From Octopus vulgaris (lineage: Eukaryota): DNA of 64,000 nt. Location of the stretch: NCBI GenBank assembly GCA_951406725.2, contig OX597826.1, positions 61,938,001-62,002,000 of the forward strand. The letters run 5' to 3'. Positions within the stretch are counted from its first letter, which is position 1; the number at the start of each line of letters is the position of its first letter. This document shows, piece after piece, positions 6,466 to 63,760 of this stretch. The position numbers and the translations under genes are program-made. A model generated the notes under the pieces. It searched no databases. It saw nothing but the letters and a program-made list of their open reading frames with translations, and had not been told where the DNA came from.

Positions 6466-6655
6466 AATCAAGTTCATTGCATAATTTTACTTAATTACTT
6501 ATTACGATCTGTACACAACTCACGCCTTTATTCTGAACCGTATGTATACTGGGTTCTAATATCAGGTTATTAGAATTACAATTGTATAGAATATCCTGAT
6601 GAACCACGGTTCTCATCGAAACATATAATATTTAAATGTATATTTATGCATATCC

Positions 6656-7076: not shown

Positions 7077-9004
7077 CACATTCATCTGATACATACGTCT
7101 TATACATTATTTGTATATCATTAAATCATCGAATGTTTGCAAATAATTTCTGATGTTGAGATTAATTTGCGATTAAGTTCTCGTATTGATTCCGACCTAT
7201 CATTAATGGTTTTCTATGATTTCCCAAACTCCATTTCCGAAAAATTTGGTAACTTTCCAAATTAGTTGACATTGCTTACCTCATATACGCCAGTAGTATC
7301 AATAGTCTATTTTAGATAATAATTTCTTAATGCTTGATGTATCTTTAATATGTTGTTGTGAACGTCAAGATATATCCCTATCTTTGATATAGTAGTTGCT
7401 GAATAGTTCTCAATCTTATACTTACAAATATACAGAAATATGTCTATACATACCATTATGAATTAATACACGCAATTGAAACAAACTTATATTTATATAC
7501 CAATGTGCATAACATAATTTATACATAATCGTCGAACTGAAGTAGCTACGATATTTTGTCTCAGATAAAATTTCTCGAAGTCGATTGTGTGTGAAAAACA
7601 CATGGTTTCGCTCAGAGCTCCGGTGTACTACCTGATACAGAGTTTCGGTTTAATTTGGATTCATCAGTAACGAATAACTCAAACGTTCGGACCCAAGTCG
7701 AAAATGTTTGTAGAGATAGAAATTGATAACGAAAACATTTACTGGCTTGTATGAAAGCGAGTCAAACTAGTATAAAATTAACACATGTACTTGAAACAGA
7801 GATTAAAATGCCGATGTGTGTAACATTTAATGTGAGTATACAAACATGGATCATCACTAGCTGTAACATTTTGCGAATGTAAATAAATGCAGGGTATGCA
7901 AACTATATTATACGGCTGTTTAAGTATTGTAACAACTGACAACAAGACACTTATGTAATTATAATTAATTTTTCAACGCCAGTGTTGTTAGCAACATTTG
8001 CGATATTTGATTTCTCTGACAATTAATTCTATTCCACAGATATTAAAACTAGAAAGATACAGACATTATCAGGAAGTTTTCAGATTAATGATGGCATTGA
8101 TAAGCCTCGTGTTAGATGATCATTATGGGTGTTATGATACCACTTTACAAGTAACAAATAATAACACTAAATATAGGTATTCCGACCAATTGTGAAACAC
8201 TGAAGGGAATAAGATAGTTATAGATGGATACATTGCTCTTTAAAGCCATTCGTATTTCATAAAACACTAGAACTACTGGTGTAAATTAGGTACCCCCAAC
8301 AAAGACGTGGATGAAAAATACTACCTTTACATACCAAACACACTATGCATTAGCATGTTTGTCATGAACTTGGTGCTAACAACAATCAAAATTGGAGAAT
8401 AACAAGTAGCTTGCTTGTGCTAGAGATAGCAATCGAAAGCTATGCATGCGGGATAACAGTAGGTTTCAGGGTGTCATCAGGAAAGAAAGCGCACCATTTT
8501 GAGGCCTTCTCTCCTGAAGAATCCTGTAAACTACTGGCATCCGGTATGCAAAGATTTCGATTGGTAGCACAGTTACAAAAGCAAGATGTTTGCAAGTCTT
8601 CAATTCCGATTGTTGATAGCATTGAGCTCACAGAATTGTAGCTTGTCGGGGACTTATGTTTGCAACATCACATCACATTTCGTGGGCTATGCATTTCTAA
8701 TCCAAGAGTAAGAGACTGTTTAATAAATACTTTCTGAACATATGAAACGTCGAAGCCAATAAACTCCCAAAGATCAAACCGAAAATATTGACTGTTGCAA
8801 GTCTGTGGAACACATTTCATAAGTGATTTCCGTCTACCAAGAAATTTCTGTAAGGTACTACCTCCCATCATAGCTATATGTAAACTTATAACTAATAATG
8901 GTTACATTGTAATGGCTACAAATATATTTCCTCTTGTTGAAACTCCGAACACCGACAGCTTGAGCGAATACTGTAATGCACTGCAGCCGGTATTTTTGAG
9001 AAAA

Positions 9005-9236
9005 TTGCGGCGAGCTGGCAGAAACGTTAGCACGCCGGGCGAAATGCTTAGCGGTATTTCGTCTGCCGTTATGTTGTGAGTTCAAATCCCGCCGAGCTCG
9101 ACTTTGCCTTTCATCCTTTCGGGGTCGATAAATTAAGTACCAGTTACGCACTGGGGTCGATGTGATCGACTTAATACCTATGTCTGTCCTTGTTTGTCCC
9201 CTCTGTGTTTAGCCCCTTGAGGGTAATAAAGAAATA
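9005..9236 (+). mobile_element. tRNA-type SINE family A, full length
   Basis: GCGGCGAGCTGGCAGAAACGTTAG head, GAGTTCAAATCC box B, CCTTTCATCCTTTCGGGGTCGATAAA core. 16-bp TSD GGTATTTTKGAGAAAA at 8989-9004 and 9237-9252. Confidence 0.92.
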
Positions 9237-10602
9237 GGTATTTTGGAGAAAAAGTCTTTGGAGCGCCGTGTTTCTGAACGCTAGACTCATTGATGGAAGA
9301 TCCCCCAAAAAGCTTTCCTCGAACACAAAAATATTAGCTTTCATATAATTATTTTAGAACAGAAAAGAATTATTATTTAGAGTTTTAGAAGTCAGCTCAC
9401 CGGTATATGTAAAGATTTCCTTCAAAATCAGCGACGAAGACTATTTACAACTGCTACAAAAATAATAGCTTCTCTGTCCAAACTATAAATACGTATTTGT
9501 ACATGAAATTATTGGTACAATGGCTATGTTACTAAATTGTTCTGGTGCGATCAGCTGCGGATAAATATAAATATTACCTAAAACATCATAAAATCCATAG
9601 TAATGCGGAGCGTGATATTTGCGTATTTGTTTTTCAAATATGCCATTAATAAAACTATATATGAAATAGTTTTCTGTATTACTTTCTCTAAAAGTTTCGC
9701 TTTAAATAATCGTTTTTGACAAACTTTCCACACATAGTGCTGCAGTAATATTTTTCTGCTTGATCGTCAGTGTCCTGTGATTTCCAAAAATATTAAGAAC
9801 TGCCCTAATTGGTGGATCGAAAAGCGAATATTTTTTCAGACACATAAATCACCGGCTAACATGCTTATTGAGGAGGAAAATAACCTCTGTAAGGCAGATA
9901 GTAAGCATATGCAGAACATCACTAAAGTTCAACATGTAAATCTGTAAATTTTCTCTATTGCTGCAGACACATGCATATATTTGTGTATATATTTGTGTTC
10001 TTGTATATCAGTGTACGAATGTGTGGTGTATGTATATATGCACGTCAGTTTGTATACAAAGGCCCATACAAATACGCACTCACATACTCACAATCATGTA
10101 CACACACACACATATAAAATATATGTATGTACAAATGGACCTGTAAGTGTATTAGATATATCAACTATACACCGATAAACGTTCAAACCTCACTCAGTCT
10201 TTTCATGCTAATCATGCTAGCCCATGTTTTCATATTTATCGTTTTCGAATCTTGAATTCGAAAGCAAGTGTGTGTATGTGTGTTTGAGAGAGACAGTGAA
10301 AGAGGCGGAAAGAGAAACAGAGCAGAGAGTGTGTGTGTGTGTGGGGGGGGGATACAGATATTTGTGCTTTTTGTTGCGTGTCTAACAGAAAGGAAAAGTA
10401 GGTATTCTGTCTTCCATTCCCTAAATAGGGCCGAACATCTCAAAAATTAATTTGAAATAGAAAATAAATTGAAAATGACATCATATGACGAAGAGAGTTT
10501 GACAGTTGAAGACGAAAGGAGACAGGAGGAGGGAGAGCATGTTTTAAAATCAATGCAAATCTGTATAAATATATGTGCTGGTGTGTTTGTGTGTGTATAA
10601 AC

Positions 10603-14727: not shown

Positions 14728-14737
14728 TTCGATATAG

Positions 14738-14945
14738 GGACAACTGAAGAAGGGGAATATTCCTTGTGTTGTATGTCTTGTACTATGTTTTTTCGTCGTT
14801 TGAAAAAATTCCGTTTCCATGTTTTAGTTTTTATGTTTTCGTCTCTCATTGTGTTCAACGTTTTTTTGGTGCCCTGTACCCATATATGCATGTATATATA
14901 AATACAGATGTAGGTATATACATATATGTGCACATATGTACCCAT
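14738..14945 (+). mobile_element. Short TA-embedded dispersed element (family D) with CTGAWGA half-core
   Basis: CTGAAGAAGGGGAATATTCCTTG..GTGCCCTG..GATGTAGGTATATAC recurs inverted at 63535-63760. Confidence 0.75.
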
Positions 14946-16808: not shown

Positions 16809-17278
16809 TTTTCTTTCTACTTTCGTTCTCTCTATTTTCTGTTTTTTTCTCTTTCTTCCGGTTTCCCCAATTCCTTCCTGTCTTCCTTTCTATCTTTTTA
16901 TCTTTCTTTCACAGACATACACACACATATATGCGAACGTATCTACAAACACACATGCATAGGCACACATATATACACACTCATAAATACAAATATATAT
17001 GCGCACACTTGTATATACACTCTTATAGGTTCAAAATAAAGAGGATTCCAATTCACTTGCAAATTTCTTCAACTACCTCACCCCCCCCCCCCGACACTTA
17101 TATATATATATTTAATATATATACATATATAGAAGACAAAGGTTTTGTAAAAAATTCATTTCTGATGAATCACTGAAACAAGATGAAAGGGTTAAATAAG
17201 TAATTATCTAAAGTTCTGACTACGTTTTTCGTAATATATAAGACCTGTACACCACTTCAAACAATCTACACATTAACA

Positions 17279-35388: not shown

Positions 35389-37567
35389 CATTGATTTACA
35401 GAGAAATTGAGACAAGCATAAAAATAGTTGCTCTAGCCTAATTTTGGGGCACTGATTTCAGATACAGAACCAGTTTTTACTCATCACCCCTAGTTTTTGA
35501 GATATACATTATGATTTTGCGACAATTCACGTAACGATATATTTGATCATTTTTTATTTTGATTTCCAGATTTTTGTGGTACACGTGATACATATCTCTA
35601 CAATGGCTTCAGGCACTTCAAAACACCGAGGATGCATCAACAAGGCAAATTCATTCTGCTAAGTATGGGGGTTTCACGACAGTTGCACAGCGCCGGACAA
35701 TTTCTTTCCTCCTGAGAACTGTTTACTTTCATTATATAGACTGTAAAATTGGAGATCAGGACAAATCCTGAGCTCCACACTTATGTTATAAACCTCGCTT
35801 CAATGAACTAACTGCATGGTTTAACGGCAAAAAAGCAGCCTTCAGCTTTGCTGTCTCGGTGGTCAGGAGAGAGTCAAAGCCATGCAGATGAGTATTAAGT
35901 TTCAATGCTTCTTCTAGAAAAAAGATCAAATAGCCCAATCTTCCCTCAGCTATGATACCTGTTTCCCACTCAGATAATCTCCTTGTCCCTAGACACCCAT
36001 CAAATAATGATATTCTTCCTGCATAAGGTGAATAAATGCCTTCAGGGTAAGATTCTGCCAAGTCGATCTCTTTTGAAGACAATGTTTCTGTTTATTCCGG
36101 ATCAAGTGGCAATGAGACCCACTCGATCACGAAGGAAGACCTGAATTACCTTGCTCATGATTTGTATCTAAGCACCAGTCAGAGCTCCTGGCATTCTAGC
36201 CAAATATATCGTTACGTGAATTGTCGCAAAATGGTAAGCAGTGGTACCTGGTGAAGGCAGATGTAAGGATCACCAGTTTCAGGACACGGAATCACAACTT
36301 TACTTCATTCTTCGACATACAAAACAGGTTGTGCTACTGCACAAATGTCCCTGGTTTGTTCACCTTCCTTGGTTTCCCACACAATCCCACAGAATGGCAT
36401 CTTCTCATAGACTCTTCCAAGCGACGTCTGAAGGCTGTGCTACTGCACAATGGGACTAAATATCCCAGCATCCCCATTGTCTACTCAGTTCATCTGAAGG
36501 AGTGTATATTATATGGACCTCCTTTTGGAAACAGTCAAGTACAACCAGTACCAGTGGAGTCTCTGCGGAGACCTCAAGGTCATTGGGCTACTTATGGGTA
36601 TGCAAGCAGGATTCACAATGTACTGTTGCTTCCTCTGTCTCTGGGATAGTCGGGCTGTGTCCAAGCACTACAAACAAAAGGATTTGGGATCTAGGAGTAT
36701 TTTCATGCCTGCTGAATACAGTGTCCAAGAAAATCCTTCGGTGGACATGATCAAGGTGCTTCTTTCTCTTCTTCATATCAAGCTTGATTTAATAAAGAAT
36801 TTCGTGAAGGCTATGGATAAAAATGGCGCTGCCTTCCAACACTTGTCCCCAGCTCTGATTTCTACTAATCTCATGGAAGGCATCTTCGTCCGAGAGGTGC
36901 TGAAGGATAAGGACTTTGAGGAGCTCCTTACCTTAAAGGAACTGAGAGCATGGGAAGCATGTAAGTCAGTCTGCCATGGCTTCCTTGGTAACACACGGGT
37001 ACTAGATTACCAAGAGTATATCTAGTAGTTGTAACAGACGTATGACGATTGGGATGCCGAATGTTACTCAAAATTCACTTTCTCCCCTCCTACCTCAACT
37101 CTTCCCTCCGAAGCTCGGAGTAGTGAGTGATGAGCATGAACAATGGTTCCACCAAGATGTTACTAAGATGGAGAGCAACTACCAAGGCACGTGGAACTCG
37201 AGCATGATGCAGGGCTTTTGTTGGATGACATCCCGGAAGCGCAGTACACAAGATCGTTGAAAGTAACCCACCCCTAACTGTCTGTTCGAATGATTTGTGT
37301 GTATTGTATTATCCAAGTAATTTAGTTCCATCAATGTTCTGTATCTATGCTGTTTTCTTCTGTAATATGCCTTTATAACAGATGAAATAAACACATATTT
37401 TGAATTTATATGCAATATAATTAAAATGGGATATGTGAAGGCAAAATATTAAAGGTGATAGAGCAAAACCATTCAGAAAATTGAATTCACTACGTCAAAA
37501 TTAGTAAAAAATCCCACCTATTCACATACTTGCCTCAGAGCATAATTTTCGTTTTTGTAAACCAGTG
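35389..37567 (+). mobile_element. Chapaev3-like (CMC superfamily) DNA transposon, full length, pseudogenised
   Basis: Termini CATTG..CAGTG with about 130-bp imperfect TIRs and TAA on both sides. Motifs KIGDQDKS*APH, LIDSSKRRLKAVLLHNG, CGDLKV..CFLCLWDSRA, LHIKL, VSDEHEQWFHQD..YQG. Family name is from motif recall. Confidence 0.82.
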
Positions 37568-42330: not shown

Positions 42331-42485
42331 AATCTACTTTACGCTACTTTGATTAAAAAATTAGAGTTGAAGTGTTCCATAGATGAGAATTTGAATCAAA
42401 TTCAAAATGACTGAAGACTAGCATCCTGCTTGAAATACAAGAGTACCAACTAATTTGAATCAAACGGTTTTGATCCATATATATA

Positions 42486-42700
42486 TACTTTATTTAAAAG
42501 CAGCAGAAATATAATAAAAGTTGTTACTCAGAGTTTCACAAACTGTCCGTCTGATGAACGGGAACGTAAAACTCTGAGTAACAGCTTTTATTATATTTCC
42601 GTTGCTTTTCAATAAAGTATTTTTTTTTCTACCTCTGGTATCTGAGTACTCTCTTTTCCACCTTGTTTCACTGTTTCACATTTATGTGCTTACTCCGGTA
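42486..42700 (+). mobile_element. Fold-back hammerhead element (family H), left arm truncated
   Basis: Inverted arms at 42486-42539 and 42566-42619. CTGATGA-ACG-GGAA-CGT-AAAA-CTCTGA-GTA-ACAG at 42551-42584. Reverse complement of 49230-49457. Confidence 0.8.
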
Positions 42701-42773
42701 ATGTGACCGCGTGTGTACCGTTGGCGATTTTTTCCTTCTTTCTTCCCTTCTCTGGATCTTTCCTTCTCCTGTG

Positions 42774-42807
42774 TTTCCGACGAAGTGCTCCGCTCGAAAC
42801 GTTAAAC
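42774..42807 (+). ncRNA. Minimal hammerhead-like motif (CCGACGA variant)
   Basis: GTTT-CCGACGA-A-GTGC-TCC-GCTC-GAAAC-GTT-AAAC with palindromic AACGTT. Lies in a pyrimidine-rich element at 42700-42906. Confidence 0.5.
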
Positions 42808-42905
42808 CCTCCTTCTTTCCTTCTTTCCTGGGCGTCCAATAATACTATATTTATTCCACGTCCTCGCGTTGTTGTGTTTTTTTTGTGCTTTCTTGTTTAG
42901 ATTAA

Positions 42906-42964
<59 letters not shown>

Positions 42965-43324
42965 TATATACATACAGACGCACATACATACACACACACA
43001 CACGCACACACACACATATATATATATATATATGAATAATAAATATTGAAGTCAATAAGAGTTTATTACCAGCAAAAAATCGATCATTATCCCATACAGC
43101 TGCTTCAGTTAAAGCCTATATATAAACCTATATATGGGAGGTTTTATGGATATTAACCTCCCTTTAAAAATATTTGGTACTGAATCAATATTTCCTTGTA
43201 TGATACCATCCTTTCGTGAGGCCAGTATAACCTTTATTTGAATTGTGTCTGTGTGTATATATACATAAATATCCTTTGCAAAAAACATAAATCCGTTGAA
43301 GAAGATGTAGAGCAGATTATATTT

Positions 43325-43363
<39 letters not shown>

Positions 43364-43371
43364 CATATATT

Positions 43372-43406
<35 letters not shown>

Positions 43407-43416
43407 TTCATATATT

Positions 43417-43463
<47 letters not shown>

Positions 43464-43550
43464 GGAAAGTTTACGAAAATAACCAAAAGACGAAGGCAGG
43501 TGGAGTACAAACAAACAAATGTATTAGTGTAGCGCTCAGGAATAGAAAAA

Positions 43551-43592
43551 GTATTTTACGTTTCGAGCCTACGCTCTTCGACAGAAAGATAC
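43551..43592 (-). ncRNA. Minimal hammerhead-like motif (core CTGTCGA)
   Basis: Minus strand GTATCTTT-CTGTCGA-A-GAGC-GTAG-GCTC-GAAAC-GTA-AAATAC. Lies in TA-flanked element 43461-43647, which is related to 42700-42906. Confidence 0.55.
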
Positions 43593-45012
43593 ACAGAAAA
43601 AAACAAGGACAGAAACAAGGAGAGAAAAAAATGCGTGTAGGAGCTACACATACAGATTCGTTTTCTTATGCTGATTTACATTTATCATATAGGTTCCTAT
43701 CTGGATTTCCGTGGCAAATCTTGAAACATGTTAACACGTAACCCAACAACTATGTTTCGAAAAACAACTTGAGAAAAAATATATCTTTTCTGATACAAAG
43801 AGATCTACGATTTAAAAATTACATTTACAAGTTAACGGAGAGGGACCTCGTTCTTAAGTGCTCTATGTTGCACTGCATATATATATATATATATATATTT
43901 ATGTAAACAATGTATATGCTTCACTTCTGCCAACTAACACTTTGTCCTTGTGTATGCCCCCCACACACACACATATGAACATGGACATACACAGACAAAC
44001 ACACTCTCACACACACACGCACACGGTCAAACACACAGTGCGCGCATATATCGGTATCTTAAAGGGTTACTATGTATGCACTTTTGCGATTCATGCAGTA
44101 TGCAAGCATGCATGCATGTATGTGTATGTGTATATGTATATGTATATATGTATATATATTTATGTATATATATACATATATGCATATCTTGATATATGTT
44201 CATATTTAGCTATATGAACAAGCAAATACAGGGATACATACAGACTCATACATGCATACATAATACATACATACATACATACATACATACATAGACAGAC
44301 ACAGACGCACGCACACGCACACACACATACTCTCATAAACACACACACAAACACACGCAAATATATAATCAAAACCAAGGGAAATTGTATGTTTACTATA
44401 TTATTTAAAATTTCATATCTCTTCGTTAAATGAGATTTAGATTTTTAGATAATTTTGTTTTATATAAACATCTCCTTTGATCTTATTTTCACCTGTTGAA
44501 ATAGAATTTATCCCATACCATTCACTGATTCATTCTATTGTTTTCCTTCTTCCATTTCATGCTTCCTATCCAGACACACGTTTTCGCTTTTTCTTCTGGC
44601 AAGTCTAAATATAGCTTATTTAGAATTCCGTTGTTATTGTCTTGTGCGTCTAAATAAGCAAACACCTCGATCAGTTCATTAGAATATGCTTGGTATGATA
44701 AACATACACCATGTGATATGAAGAATTAGGAAGTAAATATATATGAGGAAGTGTAGTGTGTGTTTGGGGTGGCTCATCTACAGATACGCATATATCTACA
44801 TATATGTGTACGAATACATTTATGGGTAAGTATAAATATGCGTACATATTTATTATGGGATAATATATATTTTGATGCACGTACGTTAAGTTATATAGCA
44901 TATATCTATTTATCTATCTTTATTTATATATATCTCTTTCTCTCTGTATATATATATATATATATATCCATGGACATACATATACATGTATGTATATATG
45001 TGTGTATGTATG

Positions 45013-45083
<71 letters not shown>

Positions 45084-45130
45084 GTGTGTGTATACATATA
45101 AATATATATATGTGTATATATATATATATA

Positions 45131-45420
45131 TCACGTGACCGACCAGACCATCAGATGTTGCTACACATCGCTGGTCACAATGCGTTTGCATTGTTTTAGC
45201 CTTCAATGATGCCACCTCGCTGGCTAAGCGAGCAAGCCAACAGAAGAAAGAGTGAGAGGAAGAGTGGTGAAAGAGTACAGCAGGGATCACCCCCCCTGCC
45301 TCTTGGAGCTTTTAGGTGTTTTCGCTCAATAAACACACACAACGCCCGGTCTGGGAATCGAAACCGCGATCCTCCGACCGCGAGTCCGCTGCCCTAACCA
45401 CTGTGCCATGGCGCCTCCAC
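45131..45420 (-). mobile_element. tRNA-derived SINE family B, tail type 1
   Basis: Minus-strand head GTGGAGGCGCCATGGCACAGTGGTTAGGGCAGCGGACTCGCGG..GGTTTCGATTCCC (A and B boxes). Flanked by microsatellites. Confidence 0.9.
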
Positions 45421-45549
45421 ATGTATGTATATATATGTGTATGTATGTATGTATGTATGTATGTATGTATGTATGTATGTATGTATGTATGTATGTATGT
45501 ATATATATATATATTTGTCTGTGTGTATACATATAAATATATATACGTG

Positions 45550-45597
<48 letters not shown>

Positions 45598-45606
45598 TAG
45601 ATAGAC

Positions 45607-45669
<63 letters not shown>

Positions 45670-46022
45670 CAGATAGATAGATAGATAGATGGATAGAGCG
45701 ATAGATAGACATAGGTGTCCCTCTCTAGAACTATATATTTTCTCTCATCTCTTACTTGCTTCAGTCATTAGACTACAGCTATGCTGGGGCACCGTACAAT
45801 ACTTATTAGTCTTTTGATTGAATCGATGTTGGAGCAAAACATCAGAGAAATTTACTGGATCTTATCGGCTAGCTCACTTCGTTTTAATCGGATACAATTT
45901 TAGCGGGTGTTATTCGTGACTCTGCGACACAACTGGGCAGACACACTCGCAATGCTCTCCTCAAGCAATGTCGAAATGTGAGTGAATTTGGTAGACACAA
46001 ACCGAAATACGCCTGTTGTATG

Positions 46023-46060
<38 letters not shown>

Positions 46061-46299
46061 CAACAATATAGGGTGAAATGAATTAATTTGGAATAATCAT
46101 TAATTACACCAAGTAGATTTCGGCATGTAAAAGCCTCATTCGAGGAAAGTTTAAGTAATACTAAGTAATTAAGGGTTTAGCAAGGAATTGCCTCATCACA
46201 CACTGAATTTAGAAATAGCAGTCAAAGAGTTATAGCTATTCCTTTCTACTAAAAGGGAGATCTCAGTAAAAACACAGCACTTGAAAGGCAAGCACAGAC

Positions 46300-46352
<53 letters not shown>

Positions 46353-46379
46353 CATATGTGTGTGTATGCGTATCCGTAT

Positions 46380-46528
46380 TTGTTCACCCACCGTCACTTG
46401 ACAACCATTGTTGGTGTGTTTACGTCCACGTAACTTAGTGGTTCGTCAAAATAGGCCGATAGAATAAGTACTAGGTTTACAAAGATAAAGTTTTGGGGTT
46501 GATCTGCTCGACTAAAGGTGGTACTGCA

Positions 46529-46602
<74 letters not shown>

Positions 46603-46740
46603 TTATATACACATATATGTGTATATATACATATATATATATTTATATATATATGTGTGTGTGTGTGCACCAGCGAGTACTGTGTTACTACAGCATGGCC
46701 GCAGTTAAATGACTGAAAGAAGTAAAAGAGTAAAAGAGTA
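46380..46740 (+). mobile_element. SINE family C 3' part, interrupted at CAGCAT
   Basis: TTGACAACC..TTTACGTCC..ATAAGTACTAGG..CGACTAAAGG [insert] CAGCATGGCCGCAG..AAAAGAGT tail. Confidence 0.8.
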
Positions 46741-47209
46741 ATATATATATACATTTATATATATATATACACACACACTTATATACACATATTTGTGTAT
46801 ATATACATATATTTATATATATATAGTGTGTGTGCACCAGTGAGTACTGTGTTAGAGATTGTGTATTTGTGGGTGTGCGTATATATATATATGTATATGT
46901 ATATATATATGTATGTATACAAATGTATATGTGTGTAGGAATGTATGTAAATGGCTTTGTGGTTGTATGTTCTGTATGTCAAAAGGTTTGTCAACATATG
47001 TGCAGTGTCAGTGATTCGTAATGTAATTGGGAATGATTGTCGCAAAAACACACGTAATTAAGGTAAACAAACCATAATAAATGTTAAGAAATGTAATAAA
47101 ACATATAAAGACGACGGATGCGATGGAGACGACGTCAATGACGACGATAATGACAGTGTAAATATATCGCTACTAATGATAAAAACTATGAGAATTACTA
47201 TGATAAGGG

Positions 47210-47269
<60 letters not shown>

Positions 47270-47328
47270 TAATAATAATGATAATGATGATAATAATAAT
47301 AATAATAATAATAATGATAATAATAATG

Positions 47329-47359
<31 letters not shown>

Positions 47360-47382
47360 TGATGATAATAATAATAATAATG

Positions 47383-47435
<53 letters not shown>

Positions 47436-47436
47436 C

Positions 47437-47471
<35 letters not shown>

Positions 47472-47915
47472 TGGAAGAAGATGAAGAAGACGAAGAAGAA
47501 GACGAAGAAGAAGAAGAAAAACAAGGAAAGAGAAGTAGAACGCGAACAAGAAGAGCGTTAATAATATCTATAATACTAACAACAGCAATAATAATAATAA
47601 TCACAATAATGATGATAATGCAAATACGTTTATGATTTTTTGTTAGAAGACATATAATACAGGAATAAACGAGTGAAGAAGGAATATATAATGCGTGTGT
47701 TTATTTCGCAAAAGAAGAAAAATACATGACCATCCCGAAATACAAGAAGAAGAAGAAGTAGAAGAAGTAGAAGGAGGTAGATGAGGAGGAGGAGAAAAAG
47801 AAGGAGGAGGAGGAGTAGAGGAGGAAGAAAAAGATGAAGAAGAAGAAGAAGAAGAAGAAGAAGAAGAAGAAGATGATGAAGAAGAAGAAGAAGAAGAAGA
47901 AGAGAAAGAAGAAGA
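47210..47915. repeat. Long (AAT/GAT)n and (GAA/GGA)n microsatellites
   Basis: Read directly. Confidence 0.95.
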
Positions 47916-47999
47916 ATTAAAACCTACCCTCTGGCCATAAGAAGGGGGGATTTTCCACTGTCATCCCTACTTTTCTGATTCGCTCTGACCCCGCTAACA

Positions 48000-49088
48000 G
48001 ACTTGTTAAACGAAACTATCATGTGTTATAAGTGCTATGAACAAAAAACAAACCACCTCAAGTACATGGATAACCAAAAACCTTTCGCTAAAATTGCTCA
48101 AAGTTTCAGAATTGGGATCGGAATGTGCATAGGGCTGGACAAAAGTGCAAGAGTCCCTCTGAGAAGAAGCTACTTATTCAGCATTGAAAGGCACTGCACT
48201 CGACACAGACATAGAACTAAGAAAATTAGACCACAACTCCCCATACAAATATCCATGAATAAACGAAACAGCTAAAATACAACACACAGAAATCAAAGAG
48301 AAATTTAGGGGTGAGTACTACAGAAGAGTCTGACTAATATTAAACAATGAACTTAATGCTAAAACTAAGATAATAGGGATAAACACGCTAGCCATACCAG
48401 TCATAAATTACTACGTTAACATAATGAACTGGAAGATCAGTTAATTAAGAAACCTAGATAGAAAAAACAGAAAACTACTAACAGCATACCGAAGTCACCA
48501 TCCCAAAGTAGACGCAGACAGAATATATTTACCCCGCTCAGAAGGAGGCCGTGGCCTGACAGATAGAAAACTACTATGAAATAGCAACAGTTTGACTAGC
48601 AAAATACTTAGAAATAAAGAGTGGAAGATTATTGCATGTAGTAATGTAAAAAGAGAAAAAAAGTAAACGCTTTTCTTTGTACATAAAGTGCGGACAAAAT
48701 ACAAAACAAAAAGAAAATACATTGACACACTGACTTCAGATGACAACATAGCAGAAATGGTCAAAAAGGGACAAAAAACAACATGAAAACTGAATTACAA
48801 AAGATATTGAAGAAGAAATGGCGAGAAAAATAACTTCATATTGAATACCCTGCTAGGCTTGACAGAGAGGAAATGAACCTACATAAAAGCCAACAATGGC
48901 TCAAGAGCTCTTGACTAAAAGCTGAACCGGAAGGACTGACTCAAGCTGCACAAAAGTAATCTCTGACTACAAACAATTATAAAAAACAAAATAATGAAAA
49001 CAGGCTTCAACACCAAATGCAGAATGTGCAACCAGGACAATGAGACAGTTGACCACATCATCTCGGGTTGCCCGGTCCTTGCCATGTC

Positions 49089-49092
<4 letters not shown>
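48000..49092 (+). mobile_element. R4/Dong-type LINE RT-to-zinc-knuckle remnant, cut off at (TA)n
   Basis: NHLKYMD, IGMCIGLDKSA, INTLAIPVINY, LDRKNRKLLT..HHPKVDADRIYLPRSEGGRGL, CRMCNQDNETVDHIISGCPVLA. Confidence 0.9.
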
Positions 49093-49128
<36 letters not shown>

Positions 49129-49332
49129 TCCCGGGTTGATTCCCACAGTAAGTAGTAAACACATAAATGTGAAGTACTGTTTCAAGGTGGAAAATTTCTC
49201 TTGAATGAACAGTACTCAAATACCAGTGGTACCGGAGTAAACACATAAATGTGAAACAAGGTGGAAAAAGTACTCAAATACCAGTGGTAGAGTAATATGC
49301 TTTATTTAAAGCAGCAGAAAATTCAACAAAAT

Positions 49333-49370
49333 CTGTTACTCTGAGTTTCTCGTTGCCGTTCATCAGACAG
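49333..49370 (-). ncRNA. Type-I hammerhead-like motif, left arm
   Basis: CTGT-CTGATGA-ACG-GCAA-CGA-GAAA-CTCAGA-GTA-ACAG. Canonical core, GNRA loop, GUA site, A-A mismatch at the base of stem II. Confidence 0.72.
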
Positions 49371-49386
49371 TTTTTGCTAGAAAAAA

Positions 49387-49424
49387 CTGTCTGATGAACG
49401 GCAACGAGAAACTCAGAGTAATAG
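49387..49424 (+). ncRNA. Type-I hammerhead-like motif, right arm
   Basis: CTGT-CTGATGA-ACG-GCAA-CGA-GAAA-CTCAGA-GTA-ATAG. Confidence 0.7.
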
Positions 49425-49456
49425 ATTTTGTTGAATTTTTTGCTGCTTTAAATAAA

Positions 49457-49499
<43 letters not shown>

Positions 49500-49821
49500 T
49501 ATAAAATTAATCAAAGGACACACCTAGTATGTCCTTTGATTAATTTTAATCACTCGGCTATTTAATGGTATTTTTGGGCCTGCTATCGCCTGTGTCATTG
49601 ATTCTGTTATTATCATTTTTTAAATTGTTACATTGGATAATAATAGAATTAATGTCACCTTCGTAAATTAATTTTATATATATATATATATGTGTGTGTA
49701 TGTGTGTGTGTGTGTGTGTGTACGGGCACGACAAAGTAAGCAGTTATATCCACTGGACCATATGTCAAAAAATAATATTGTTGGGAACTACTCGTATCCT
49801 ACGAAAACCACCACCACCACC

Positions 49822-50649: not shown

Positions 50650-51039
50650 GGATATGGAAGCACTCCGTCGGTTACGACGACGAGGTTTCCGGTTGATCCG
50701 AATCAACGGAACAGCCTGCTCGTGAAATTAACGTGTAAGTGGTTGAGCACTCCACAGACACGTGTACCCTTAACGTAGTTCTCGGGGATATTCAGCGTGA
50801 CACAGAGAGTGACAAGGCCGGCCCTTTGAAGTAAAGATACAACAGAAACAGGAATTAAGAGTGAGAGAAAGTTATGGTGAAAGAGTACAGCAGGGATCAC
50901 CACCATCCCCAGCCGGAGCCTCGTGGAGCTTTAGGTGTTTTCACTCAATAAACACTCACAACGCCCGGTCTGGGAATCGAAACCGCGATCCTATGACTGC
51001 GAGTCCGCTGCCCTAACCACTGGGCCATTGCGCCTCCAC
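50650..51039 (-). mobile_element. tRNA-derived SINE family B, tail type 2, full length
   Basis: Same head as the 45.4 kb copy. 12-bp TSD TCATTTCGCATT at 50638-50649 and 51040-51051. Confidence 0.93.
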
Positions 51040-55429: not shown

Positions 55430-55995
55430 ACGTACCTATATCTACATGTATATATACATGCATATATAAATAATTATACGTGAGTACAGGACAAAACAAT
55501 AAGACGTAGAAACGGGAAAATCAGAAAAAACAAAAAACAAGAAAACGAAAAAACAAAATACAAGAAAGCGAAAAAAACAGTTACAGGACGTGCTACACAA
55601 GGAAAAAACCCCCGTCATCAGCTGTTGCTAGTAGAGTCACGCATGTTTCGAAGGCAGAGACAGAACACTAATCCATCAGGCCTTCCTGCGAGAGAATTAA
55701 AACAAAATTCCAATTAGAGGGGCAAAATGAGTACGAACAGGACGTAACAATAAAACTGCAAAAATAAAAATACATGTACAAAAAATACAAAAAATACAAA
55801 GCGAGAAAAATAAAAAGAGAATACGATACAGGAAATCAACCACACAAGAGCACGAACGAAAAAGCCTTTTTTCCTGGCATAGACGAAGGATACTGTAAGC
55901 GCGTGGGAGGCAGTCTTTTCAGTAGTAAGAGCAACGTGTAAAAGAAAATTTTATAGGCTGGCAGTAAGGAAGAAGGAAGGAGGAGGGGGACACGC
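55430..55995 (-). mobile_element. TA-embedded element related to family D / Penelope-terminus-like
   Basis: Minus strand GCCTTCGAAACATGCGTGACTC..GCTGATGACGGGGG. GAGTACAGG end resembles 63597 onward. Confidence 0.5.
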
Positions 55996-61509: not shown

Positions 61510-61955
61510 TGTAAATCATTCTTTGTGTATGCAGAGAGATACGGTTTTATCCCTAATATTTAGGATGTTATTTATTGATTGTATAATGTTTAATTTTTCA
61601 GTAATACAGAGTTCACAATTGATACCCCGTCCTCTGAACATTTTGGCTATAGCAATATTTTTCCATTCTATCAGGAGGTTGCTTCTTCCAAACTTCTTTC
61701 AATGTCCATATCATATTTGACGGTGAAGATGCATGTTCTGTTCTTTTGTTTTTGTCTCTCAATGACGCCAGATGCTGTGTATACCTTCCCTTAAACGAGT
61801 TGCCAGTCATTCCGATAAACGTCTTTGCCAATCCATTGGGGTCGGTGATCTTGGCCTTGTATACCAGTTCTTTCACGATACAGTCGTTGTTTAGAGGGCA
61901 GTGGTTTGGAGAGCTACAGTTGCATTGTCTTTTGTGGCTGTTTCTGGTGTGATTC
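61510..61955 (-). mobile_element. Penelope-like GIY-YIG endonuclease 3' end
   Basis: CNCSSPNHCPLNNDCIVKELVYKAKIT..TFIGMTGNSFKGRYTQHLASLR..IWTLKE..CELCITEKLNII..LNIRDKTVSLCIH. Confidence 0.92.
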
Positions 61956-62178
61956 TGTTTATATATACACACACACACATAAGTATATATAAGCATATGT
62001 ATGTATGTCTATGTTTGTATGTAAGTATGTATGTATGTATGTATCTATCTGTCACTCTCTCACTGTGTCTATATATCTCTGTATACATACATACATGCAT
62101 ACATATACGCACACACACACACAGACACACACACATACACACACACACATATATATATATAGCTAGACAGATAGATAA

Positions 62179-63534: not shown

Positions 63535-63760
63535 ACATATATGTATATACCTACATCTATATGTATATATACATGCATATATATATATATATATATGAGT
63601 GCAGGGCACCACAAATAAACGTAGAACACAACGAGAAACGAAAACATAAAAACAAACAAGGAAACGGACTTTTTTTAACAACGAAAAAAACAGAGTACAA
63701 GACAAACAATACAAGGAATATTCCCCTTCATCAGCTGCCCCTGGTTCGACTCAATGCATA
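63535..63760 (-). mobile_element. Family D element (inverted copy of 14738-14945)
   Basis: Minus strand CTGATGAAGGGGAATATTCCTTG..GTGCCCTGCACTC..GATGTAGGTATATAC. Confidence 0.78.

Follow-up and report, generated by a model that had tools for sequence, protein, structure and literature searches.

Two head-to-head repeats with a hammerhead-like motif in Octopus vulgaris DNA, likely truncated Penelope-like insertions

The 64,000-nucleotide stretch of Octopus vulgaris DNA analysed here (the window) holds two short head-to-head (mirror-image) repeats, copies A and B, which combine a hammerhead-ribozyme-like motif with a one-sided tail. Both are likely heavily 5′-truncated, non-coding insertions of Penelope-like elements (PLEs). 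That they are PLE-derived and that the inverted arm was remade during transposition, by either of two routes, is in our judgement probable. More tentatively, and at a little less than an even chance, we propose that the inverted arm came from a second RT event primed on the opposite target strand, with the two cDNAs joined head-to-head. The layout itself is already known, being the published form of PLE insertions in the account of their structure in PMC8557442, and self-priming has been proposed before for such a layout in the discussion of PLE junctions in PMC3846280.

Layout of the two copies

In both of the two copies, an inverted 5′-truncated copy was joined head-to-head at the 5′ end. 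The features, in order of position, were as follows.

42485..42539, minus strand: copy A inverted arm, from the hammerhead 3′ half (GAAA, palindromic helix III, GUA site) through AATAAA
42540..42620, plus strand: copy A direct arm, with the whole hammerhead motif, core at 42551 and AATAAA at 42611
42621..42700, plus strand: copy A tail, ~80 nt, one-sided, with a T-run at its start
49092..49126, no strand: (TA)n flank of copy B on the tail side, likely target
49127..49231, minus strand: copy B tail 2, a second, longer tail variant with two extra segments
49230..49296, minus strand: copy B tail 1, homologous to the copy A tail, with the same end motif
49297..49378, minus strand: copy B direct arm, with the whole hammerhead motif, core start 49366 and putative cleavage after 49337
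49371..49386, no strand: copy B inversion junction, T5, a 6-nt loop and A5, with CTAG in the centre
49379..49460, plus strand: copy B inverted arm, with the whole hammerhead motif, core 49391 and putative cleavage after 49420
49458..49503, no strand: (TA)n flank of copy B on the inverted-arm side, likely target, overlapping the last arm bases

The arms of copy B meet without a spacer except for the 6-nt loop (centre 49378/49379), and its inverted arm has AATAAA at 49451, with (TA)n following the arm end. The inverted arm of copy A ends directly beyond the GAAA motif and is shorter than the direct arm by 26 nt, and its outer end adjoins a short (AT)n run. The inner junction differs between the copies, and the preliminary description was right to call the inverted arm truncated in one copy and complete in the other, where it carries the whole motif. 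The outer end of the inverted arm falls at the same base in A and B, after AATAAA and just before the tail. The direct arms of the two copies begin ~6 nt apart or less, at helix I.

The tail occurs three times in all, once in A and twice in B. The A and B tails gave 60 matches in 66 aligned columns, so that the common tail noted at the outset is real, but it is not single, as a second variant lies in B, identical to tail 1 at 59/62 positions where the two align. Tail lengths are 67 nt (B) and 80 nt (A), or ~170 nt in B when the second variant is included. The extra segments of B tail 2 fold into a hairpin (z −2.1); neither the A tail (z −1.0) nor B tail 1 (z −0.8) gave a significant fold. A B-box-like motif is located on the plus strand at the far end of B tail 2 (49134). 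Three of the four flanks of the two copies consist of (TA)n, which is common throughout the genome, and no target-site duplication was readable at either copy.

A BLAST search within the 64-kb window returned copies A and B only. Neither copy has an ORF of at least 90 aa, as expected for truncated copies, and neither locus holds a tandem array, the hammerhead motifs being head-to-head. A coding role was rejected; the ATG of the core opens 29 codons in copy B and meets a stop at codon 8 in A. Scans with the hammerhead pattern and with the tail pattern over genome contigs of bacteria and archaea gave 0 matches, as expected for animal DNA.

Arm similarity within and between copies

As first described, the arms were more alike within a copy than between copies. 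Over the 55 nt common to the four arms, identity within copies was 50/55 in A and 52/55 in B, against 42–46/56 for arms of different copies; the whole arms of copy B were identical at 80/84 positions. In the gap-corrected four-arm alignment, for which two gaps were set by hand from the pairwise alignment, 8/8 informative columns paired sister arms and 0/8 grouped arms by position; in the quartet, sister arms had an ML bootstrap of 100. Ungapped MAFFT alignments gave 14 and 12 sister columns, counts inflated by a one-base offset, versus one positional column.

The copy-specific motifs listed in the preliminary description held with one exception. ACTCTGAGT occurs in both arms of copy A (42526-42534 minus, 42571-42579 plus), as does AATATAATAAAAG (42508, 42585), and both arms of copy B contain ACTCAGAGT (49338 minus, 49411 plus) and AAATTCAACAAAAT (49319, 49425). 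An A precedes GAAA in both arms of copy B. Copy A has T in the same column of both arms, but GAAA comes next in the left arm only, and the right arm reads AAAA (42568) in its place. The arms differ at five positions in copy A and at four in copy B, and the unpaired junction position of copy B (49376/49381) is the only transversion among its four. The three outer mismatches of copy B show a G.T bias, in a sample too small for use.

The inverted-repeat copies are not a chance product. With simple repeats masked, three hairpins passed the scan of the 64 kb, namely A, B and a 17-bp one adjoining B, and the folding of copy A reached z = −14. An ordinary MITE, with a hammerhead-like motif arising by chance in its terminal inverted repeats, would also appear as a short non-coding inverted repeat within TA-rich DNA. 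Such an origin is hardly credible here, as the repeats are not terminal (the homologous tail extends both copies on one side), none of the eight informative columns groups the arms by position, and the inner junction differs. The pattern named beforehand as evidence for a MITE, with arm clades by position and a fixed breakpoint, was not seen.

It was also suggested earlier that the arms had been homogenised by conversion, and we keep this as a rival, albeit an improbable one. The palindrome would have been inherited whole from a master copy, its arms homogenised by intramolecular conversion or replication template switching, and the centre of copy A lost by later deletion. Central deletion and correction are established for palindromes, and the shorter arm of copy A could reflect such a later central deletion. 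A pattern resembling the one seen appeared in 8–24% of the runs of a simple simulation with one to eight conversions per copy, and in 16–24% with two to four whole-arm conversions per copy; simulated without conversion, 0/1500 runs matched. Inheritance also agrees with the direct arms of A and B starting at almost the same place, and with a between-copy difference that is lower in the tail (6/66) than in the arms (11/54 and 9/54). However, tail and arms do not differ significantly in this respect (p 0.11 and 0.27), eight unconverted differences are left in the common 55 nt, and the differences fixed between the copies fall together at the free positions of the hammerhead, the pattern expected from selection in active sources. 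For a pair of copies whose sources have diverged, regeneration at each insertion, regeneration once per lineage and conversion may all fit.

The hammerhead-like motif and the probable PLE affiliation

By its sequence, the motif is a PLE-type minimal hammerhead, a putative ribozyme with short stems and a palindromic helix III. Its topology is that of a type I hammerhead with a GUA site, and the core, helices I–III and the site could all be placed. The conserved core (CUGANGA, GAAA, UH site) is intact in two of the three full motifs, those of the two B arms. The copy A hammerhead, with its core broken, is predicted to be inactive because the direct arm carries G12>A at 42568 and, ahead of the core, an insertion of 4 nt. 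Helix II has 3 bp, closed by A-U, in copy A and 2 bp in copy B, with an A.A mismatch at 10.1/11.1 in both B arms, and helix I comprises 4 bp plus a 4-bp extension beyond a 1x1 loop. These dimensions depart from the canonical type I form, which has a helix II of ~4 bp with G10.1-C11.1 and a helix I of ~6 bp. The term "canonical hammerhead" used previously cannot be kept, given the short helix II, the missing G10.1-C11.1 pair, the broken core of A and the lack of an Rfam hammerhead match.

Four local Rfam searches at the copies gave no hammerhead or tRNA match, and no hammerhead appeared there at E up to 10. For the whole window, neither a hammerhead nor a tRNA was among the matches listed (150 of 275), and the top Rfam matches were miRNA families below their cut-offs. 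A hammerhead pattern that was itself derived from copies A and B matched three times versus 0.08 expected. A strict hammerhead descriptor, whose rule for helix II and III pairing missed the A and B motifs, gave a single match at 17162, which was set aside; 5/30 shuffles also gave one. The MFE structure of the copy B monomer does not take the hammerhead fold (z about 0.1); in a cofold, the 7-nt palindromic helix III of one copy pairs with that of the other. Within the hammerhead region of 39 nt, 3/4 between-copy differences lie at positions that are unpaired or free (p 0.004, with the positions picked after the data were seen), which suggests selection in the source elements and not post-insertion drift.

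A small palindromic helix III has been described for PLE hammerheads (PMC4209133). Like those of D. virilis, rotifers, shrimp and mosquito in that work, the present motif is of type I with a GUA site and a palindromic helix III, and copy B shares their intact core. Unlike those hammerheads, which have a long helix II, it has 3 bp there (2 bp in B), a GNAA loop and no G10.1-C11.1 pair, and it found no Rfam hammerhead match.

The hammerhead lies within the repeat, as in a PLE pLTR, and a remnant of a PLE-type GIY-YIG endonuclease is present in the same window (61616-61990). An HMMER protein search with this remnant gave matches, and word-index protein searches with it gave none. Copies A and B both lack an attached RT or endonuclease, and neither arm nor tail aligned with the 3′ region of the remnant (13–136/300 shuffles scored as high). 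Comparisons of the copies with the remnant, two SINE families, an 8.4-kb palindrome and three other repeats yielded no convincing alignment; in the best of 18, 5/200 shuffles scored equally, uncorrected.

In the sections of PMC8557442 on insertion structure, a typical PLE insertion consists of an inverted 5′-truncated copy and a one-sided tail of 30–40 bp, put down to endonuclease resolution, and the PLE cycle is called "still undefined". Short 5′-truncated EN+ PLEs with an inverted pLTR and a tail are known from Penelope/Poseidon, Neptune and the rotifer Pen2, Pen2a and Pen3a (corresponding sections of PMC8557442, PMC3846280 and PMC2377424). Copies A and B resemble these in the head-to-head inverted copy at the 5′ side with a palindrome at the junction, in an inverted arm that is the shorter one or overlaps the direct arm, and in the tail at one end, the hammerhead inside the repeat and the likely AT-rich or microsatellite target. 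They differ in having no ORF and in the tail, 67–80 nt (longer in B) versus 30–40 bp, and tails of this length count against the PLE reading. One supplementary file of PMC8557442 contained no sequence match to the copies. The non-LTR retrozymes, as outlined in bioRxiv 10.64898/2026.07.22.740005, are likewise non-coding and PLE-related with a type I hammerhead, but they are head-to-tail tandem units, whereas A and B are head-to-head inversions, so that no transcript would carry two sense hammerheads able to dimerise in cis.

Possible routes to the inverted arm

In the in vitro experiments of PMC11167929, a PLE protein, predicted to be a dimer, prefers AT-rich DNA, cleaves and extends both target strands, starts RT at two sites bracketing the tail, and works without hammerhead cleavage. 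These data are silent on inverted arms, and the two-sided priming route is our own proposal. It appears favoured over a single fold-back because the inverted arms of A and B end at one and the same base, immediately ahead of the tail. A TA-rich site would be nicked on both strands by a PLE RT-endonuclease, which was probably provided in trans. The first cDNA would start at the distal start site and include the tail, and the second would start at the proximal site just past AATAAA, without the tail. Both would stop at or inside the hammerhead and be joined at their 3′ ends, in copy B via T5/A5 or CTAG self-complementarity and in copy A over a recognisable overlap of no more than 1 nt. The arms, copied from the same or sister RNAs, would be identical at the start and then drift, and the eight columns fixed between the copies would have arisen in two source lineages. 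Directly seen are the layout, the sister-arm pattern, the common outer end of the inverted arms and the TA-rich flanks. The near-equal starts of the direct arms at helix I, not expected from random truncation, tell against this proposal. L1 twin-priming also produces a 5′ inversion from two primers on opposite target strands, with a microhomology junction, but it inverts part of one RNA without duplication; in A and B, the same 3′ segment is present twice.

The junctions of A and B fit a fold-back equally well, a possible route that we nevertheless regard as rather unlikely. With the same PLE origin, the first cDNA (or an antisense RNA) would fold its 3′ end back onto a short inverted repeat and copy itself, and the endonuclease would then set the outer end at the tail boundary. 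The centre of copy B is a T5-6 nt-A5 hairpin, and its loop may be native sequence, since the only transversion among the arm differences of B falls there. In its treatment of head-to-head junctions, PMC3846280 reports a shortened inverted pLTR and junction palindromes in rotifer PLEs, infers self-priming from such palindromes and argues that an antisense template is necessary; the ascription of the tail to endonuclease resolution in PMC8557442 points the same way. On the other hand, the B hairpin before extension has little stability (about −1.7 kcal/mol as DNA), the copy A junction has no fold-back homology, and the common outer end needs an extra step, whereas two RT start sites account for it directly. 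The sister arms, the differing inner junctions and the one-sided tail lend partial support to the initial view that the inverted arm is regenerated, an idea that is not new (same parts of PMC3846280 and PMC8557442).

The argument that an antisense template is necessary (PMC3846280, as above) also fits a SINE-like unit read the other way, which we consider very unlikely. It would be tRNA-derived and transcribed by Pol III, starting at the outer tail end and running across the antisense arm; the transcript would end at T5 by the palindrome centre, self-prime and rebuild the sense arm at every insertion, as a tRNA-headed parasite dependent on PLE enzymes. The scan found four B-box-like motifs in the window, two of them within clear tRNA-SINE heads, and such a motif lies at the very end of copy B tail 2. 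Counting from 49127 on the same strand, no run of four or more T comes before 49371, close to the centre, and the copy A direct arm starts in the same T/A tract. Yet the motif has a deletion and is present in one copy only, and tail 2 has no Rfam tRNA match, no tRNA by ARAGORN and no A-box. Alignment to the SINE heads of the window was not significant (14–23/200 shuffles scored as high). On an A-rich strand, a stretch of 250 nt that lacks T4 runs is unremarkable. If true, the SINE-like reading would show in nature the antisense self-priming route suggested for Penelope replication, and would add a class of SINE-like elements reliant on PLE enzymes.

In the short copies, ~220 nt contain the junction as well as both start sites, and a genome-wide set of them would make a cheap natural test of two-sided priming versus fold-back versus conversion. 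We must also note that such hairpins are open to mis-annotation as MITEs or microRNA precursors.

Layout of copies A and B and likeness of their arms

Copies A (~42.5 kb) and B (~49.3 kb) are short mirror-image repeats with a hammerhead-like motif and a one-sided tail. They were the two long hairpins of only three hairpins found in the window after masking. With the tail set at the 3′ end, both copies follow the order inverted arm, direct hammerhead-bearing arm, tail.

Parts of copies A and B (window positions, strand of the copy)
42485-42539, plus: inverted arm of copy A
42540-42620, plus: direct arm of copy A
42621-42700, plus: tail of copy A
49379-49460, minus: inverted arm of copy B
49297-49378, minus: direct arm of copy B
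49230-49296, minus: tail of copy B
49127-49231, minus: second tail variant of copy B

The inverted arm ended at the same base in both copies, just past AATAAA, where the direct arm passes into the tail. The end of A's tail corresponded to the end of B's first tail, and the start points of the two direct arms, at helix I of the motif, were no more than ~6 nt apart. Directly after the (TA)n flank of B we observed a perfect hairpin (49504-49546; 17-bp arms, 9-nt loop). The (TA)n flanking copy B also cuts a non-LTR retrotransposon remnant (48991-49092, plus; Pfam zf-RVT match, E 2e-5), whose reading frame does not visibly resume beyond the copy.

Sister arms, i.e. those of the same copy, were more alike than arms of different copies, as the preliminary description had rightly observed. 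Over the shared 55 nt, identity was 50/55 in A and 52/55 in B, against 42-46/56 between copies. In a four-arm alignment, with two gaps hand-placed following the pairwise alignment, all 8 informative columns joined sisters and none grouped arms by position, while another 8 were private to one arm; the quartet bootstrap for the sister grouping was 100. Ungapped alignments gave sister versus positional columns of 14:1 and 12:1. The motifs described as diagnostic of each copy were present in both of its arms, except that A's right arm reads AAAA, not GAAA.

A palindrome inherited whole, with its arms homogenised by conversion, could produce such a pattern. A simple simulation assumed 0.11 substitutions per site on each arm and conversion of whole arms. 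Of the 1500 runs made at each setting, 0%, 3%, 8%, 16%, 24% and 15% reproduced the observed pattern with 0, 0.5, 1, 2, 4 and 8 conversions per copy, respectively. A's short arm could be accounted for by a central deletion. We nevertheless regard this origin as improbable.

The hammerhead motif

In the motif, helix I has 4 bp plus a 4-bp extension past a 1x1 loop, and helix II has 3 bp and is capped by a GNAA loop. The other elements are the core, GAAA, a 7-nt palindrome whose central base is free, and a GUA site. The term canonical hammerhead, applied to it initially, does not hold, because the short helix II has no G10.1-C11.1 pair (A·A at 10.1-11.1 in both B arms), A's full motif carries G12>A as well as an insertion of 4 nt, no folding signal came from the monomer hammerhead, and Rfam searches of the two copies returned no hammerhead match. 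Cofolding of two B motifs predicted pairing through the palindrome, as expected of dimer-type hammerheads of Penelope-like elements (PLEs) (PMC4209133, PMC6765202). Of the four between-copy differences in the 39-nt hammerhead region, three affect free positions, namely loop N, the centre of the palindrome and the internal loop (p 0.004, post hoc). This suggests selection on the fold in the source elements. The motif is a PLE-type variant and a putative ribozyme.

Related motifs occurred elsewhere. A second repeat family (42701-42905, plus; ~43460-43640, minus) is 63% identical between its copies, one of which abuts A's tail; each ends in a microsatellite and holds a decayed minimal-hammerhead-like motif (42777, plus; 43559-43584, minus). 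An older long palindrome (8365-8636, arms ~72% alike), not alignable to A or B, has an outward-pointing CTGANGA near the centre in each arm, with no helix II. Members of another family (14736-14879, 63599-63742, ~55450-55630) carry a CTGANGA half-core, lack GAAA and end in TA repeats. Isolated CTGANGA...GAAA motifs at 6596, 7667 (minus), 42411 and 49978 (minus), with unconvincing helix pairing, are possibly decayed hammerheads.

Formation of the inverted arm

PLE insertions are reported to be 5′-truncated, frequently carrying a truncated inverted copy at the 5′ end, to have a tail of 30-40 bp on one side and hammerheads within their terminal repeats (pLTRs), and to favour microsatellites (PMC8557442); their inverted repeats vary in size from copy to copy (PMC2377424). 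Among rotifer PLEs, one inverted pLTR was 37 bp shorter than its direct counterpart, others had junction palindromes, and self-priming was proposed for such inverted pLTRs (PMC3846280). Copy A corresponds to the shortened form, copy B to the form with a palindrome at the junction. The earlier idea that arms are regenerated at each insertion is plausible, but it is not new, having been published for PLEs. The motif had no match in one supplementary file of PMC8557442; the family may already exist in other consensus files of that paper, in supplements of a bioRxiv retrozyme preprint or of PMC4209133, or in the repeat library behind PMC13282606.

A PLE protein was reported to cleave and extend both strands, with reverse transcription starting at two sites bracketing the tail; it favours AT-rich DNA, and ribozyme cleavage is dispensable (PMC11167929, three supplement files of which gave no match). 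Tentatively, we propose that two-sided priming makes the inverted arm, a route we consider a realistic possibility. Priming of both target strands in one event would yield two facing cDNAs of the same sequence, differing in start site alone, and hence a tail-less inverted arm, a tailed direct arm and a head-to-head joint that can vary. Two identical cDNA ends could anneal only at a self-complementary stretch, which would account for junction palindromes with no need for an antisense template. Such a stretch is present in B's joint (T5, 6 nt, A5, CTAG central); in A's, the recognisable overlap is 1 nt at most. Fold-back of a single cDNA would give the same junctions and would require no more than an endonuclease cut to fix the outer end; we think it rather unlikely. 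A search for a twin-priming origin of Penelope inversions returned only unrelated papers; older subscription literature, outside the search, may already propose two-sided priming.

The nearly coincident start of the direct arms may be a real boundary, given a 3′-splice-site-like stretch in B (pyrimidine run and CTAG directly upstream of helix I; 49376-49386, minus) and a D. virilis intron that ends at helix I (PMC4209133). The direct arm of A begins near the position that corresponds to this stretch. The second tail of B carries at its distal end a B-box-like, tRNA T-arm-like motif on the antisense strand (49127-49147, plus), which raises the reading of a SINE-like unit. The motif is one of four such motifs in the window, Rfam found no tRNA match there, and the reading drew no support from Rfam or ARAGORN; we consider it highly improbable.

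The GIY-YIG remnant and the genomic setting

61613-62008, minus: PLE-type GIY-YIG endonuclease remnant (Pfam, HMMER)
61616-61990, minus: ORF remnant within it

The ORF remnant gave a weak Pfam GIY-YIG match (E 6e-4, below cut-off), and its Atlas neighbours (0.95-0.96) were from eukaryotes. HMMER returned 1776 hits; among the nine scanned, one had GIY-YIG, seven had no Pfam match, and one 662-aa protein showed a below-cut-off RT match (E 2e-4) lying upstream of the part matched in the search. The Cys-rich linker ahead of GIY-YIG resembles that of Neptune, Nematis and Naiad (PMC8557442), and the remnant's 5′ end lies in a TA/CA microsatellite. This ORF remnant indicates that PLEs are present in the Octopus vulgaris genome. 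The remnant aligned with neither arm nor tail of A or B, so it is only a candidate mobiliser.

The window is AT-rich (GC 0.28-0.42) and abundant in microsatellites (180 rows in the tandem-repeat scan; 16% masked), and it contains SINE-like repeats and broken retroelement ORFs. Two overlapping ORF pieces (36200-37025, plus), with no significant Pfam match, resemble a broken transposon protein. A minisatellite at 1303-2095 has ~35 copies, with units of 21 and 25 nt. Two SINE-like families were observed, the first (45239-45420 and 50847-51039, minus) with a clear tRNA-like head and B-box, the second at 9001-9242 with at least five relatives.
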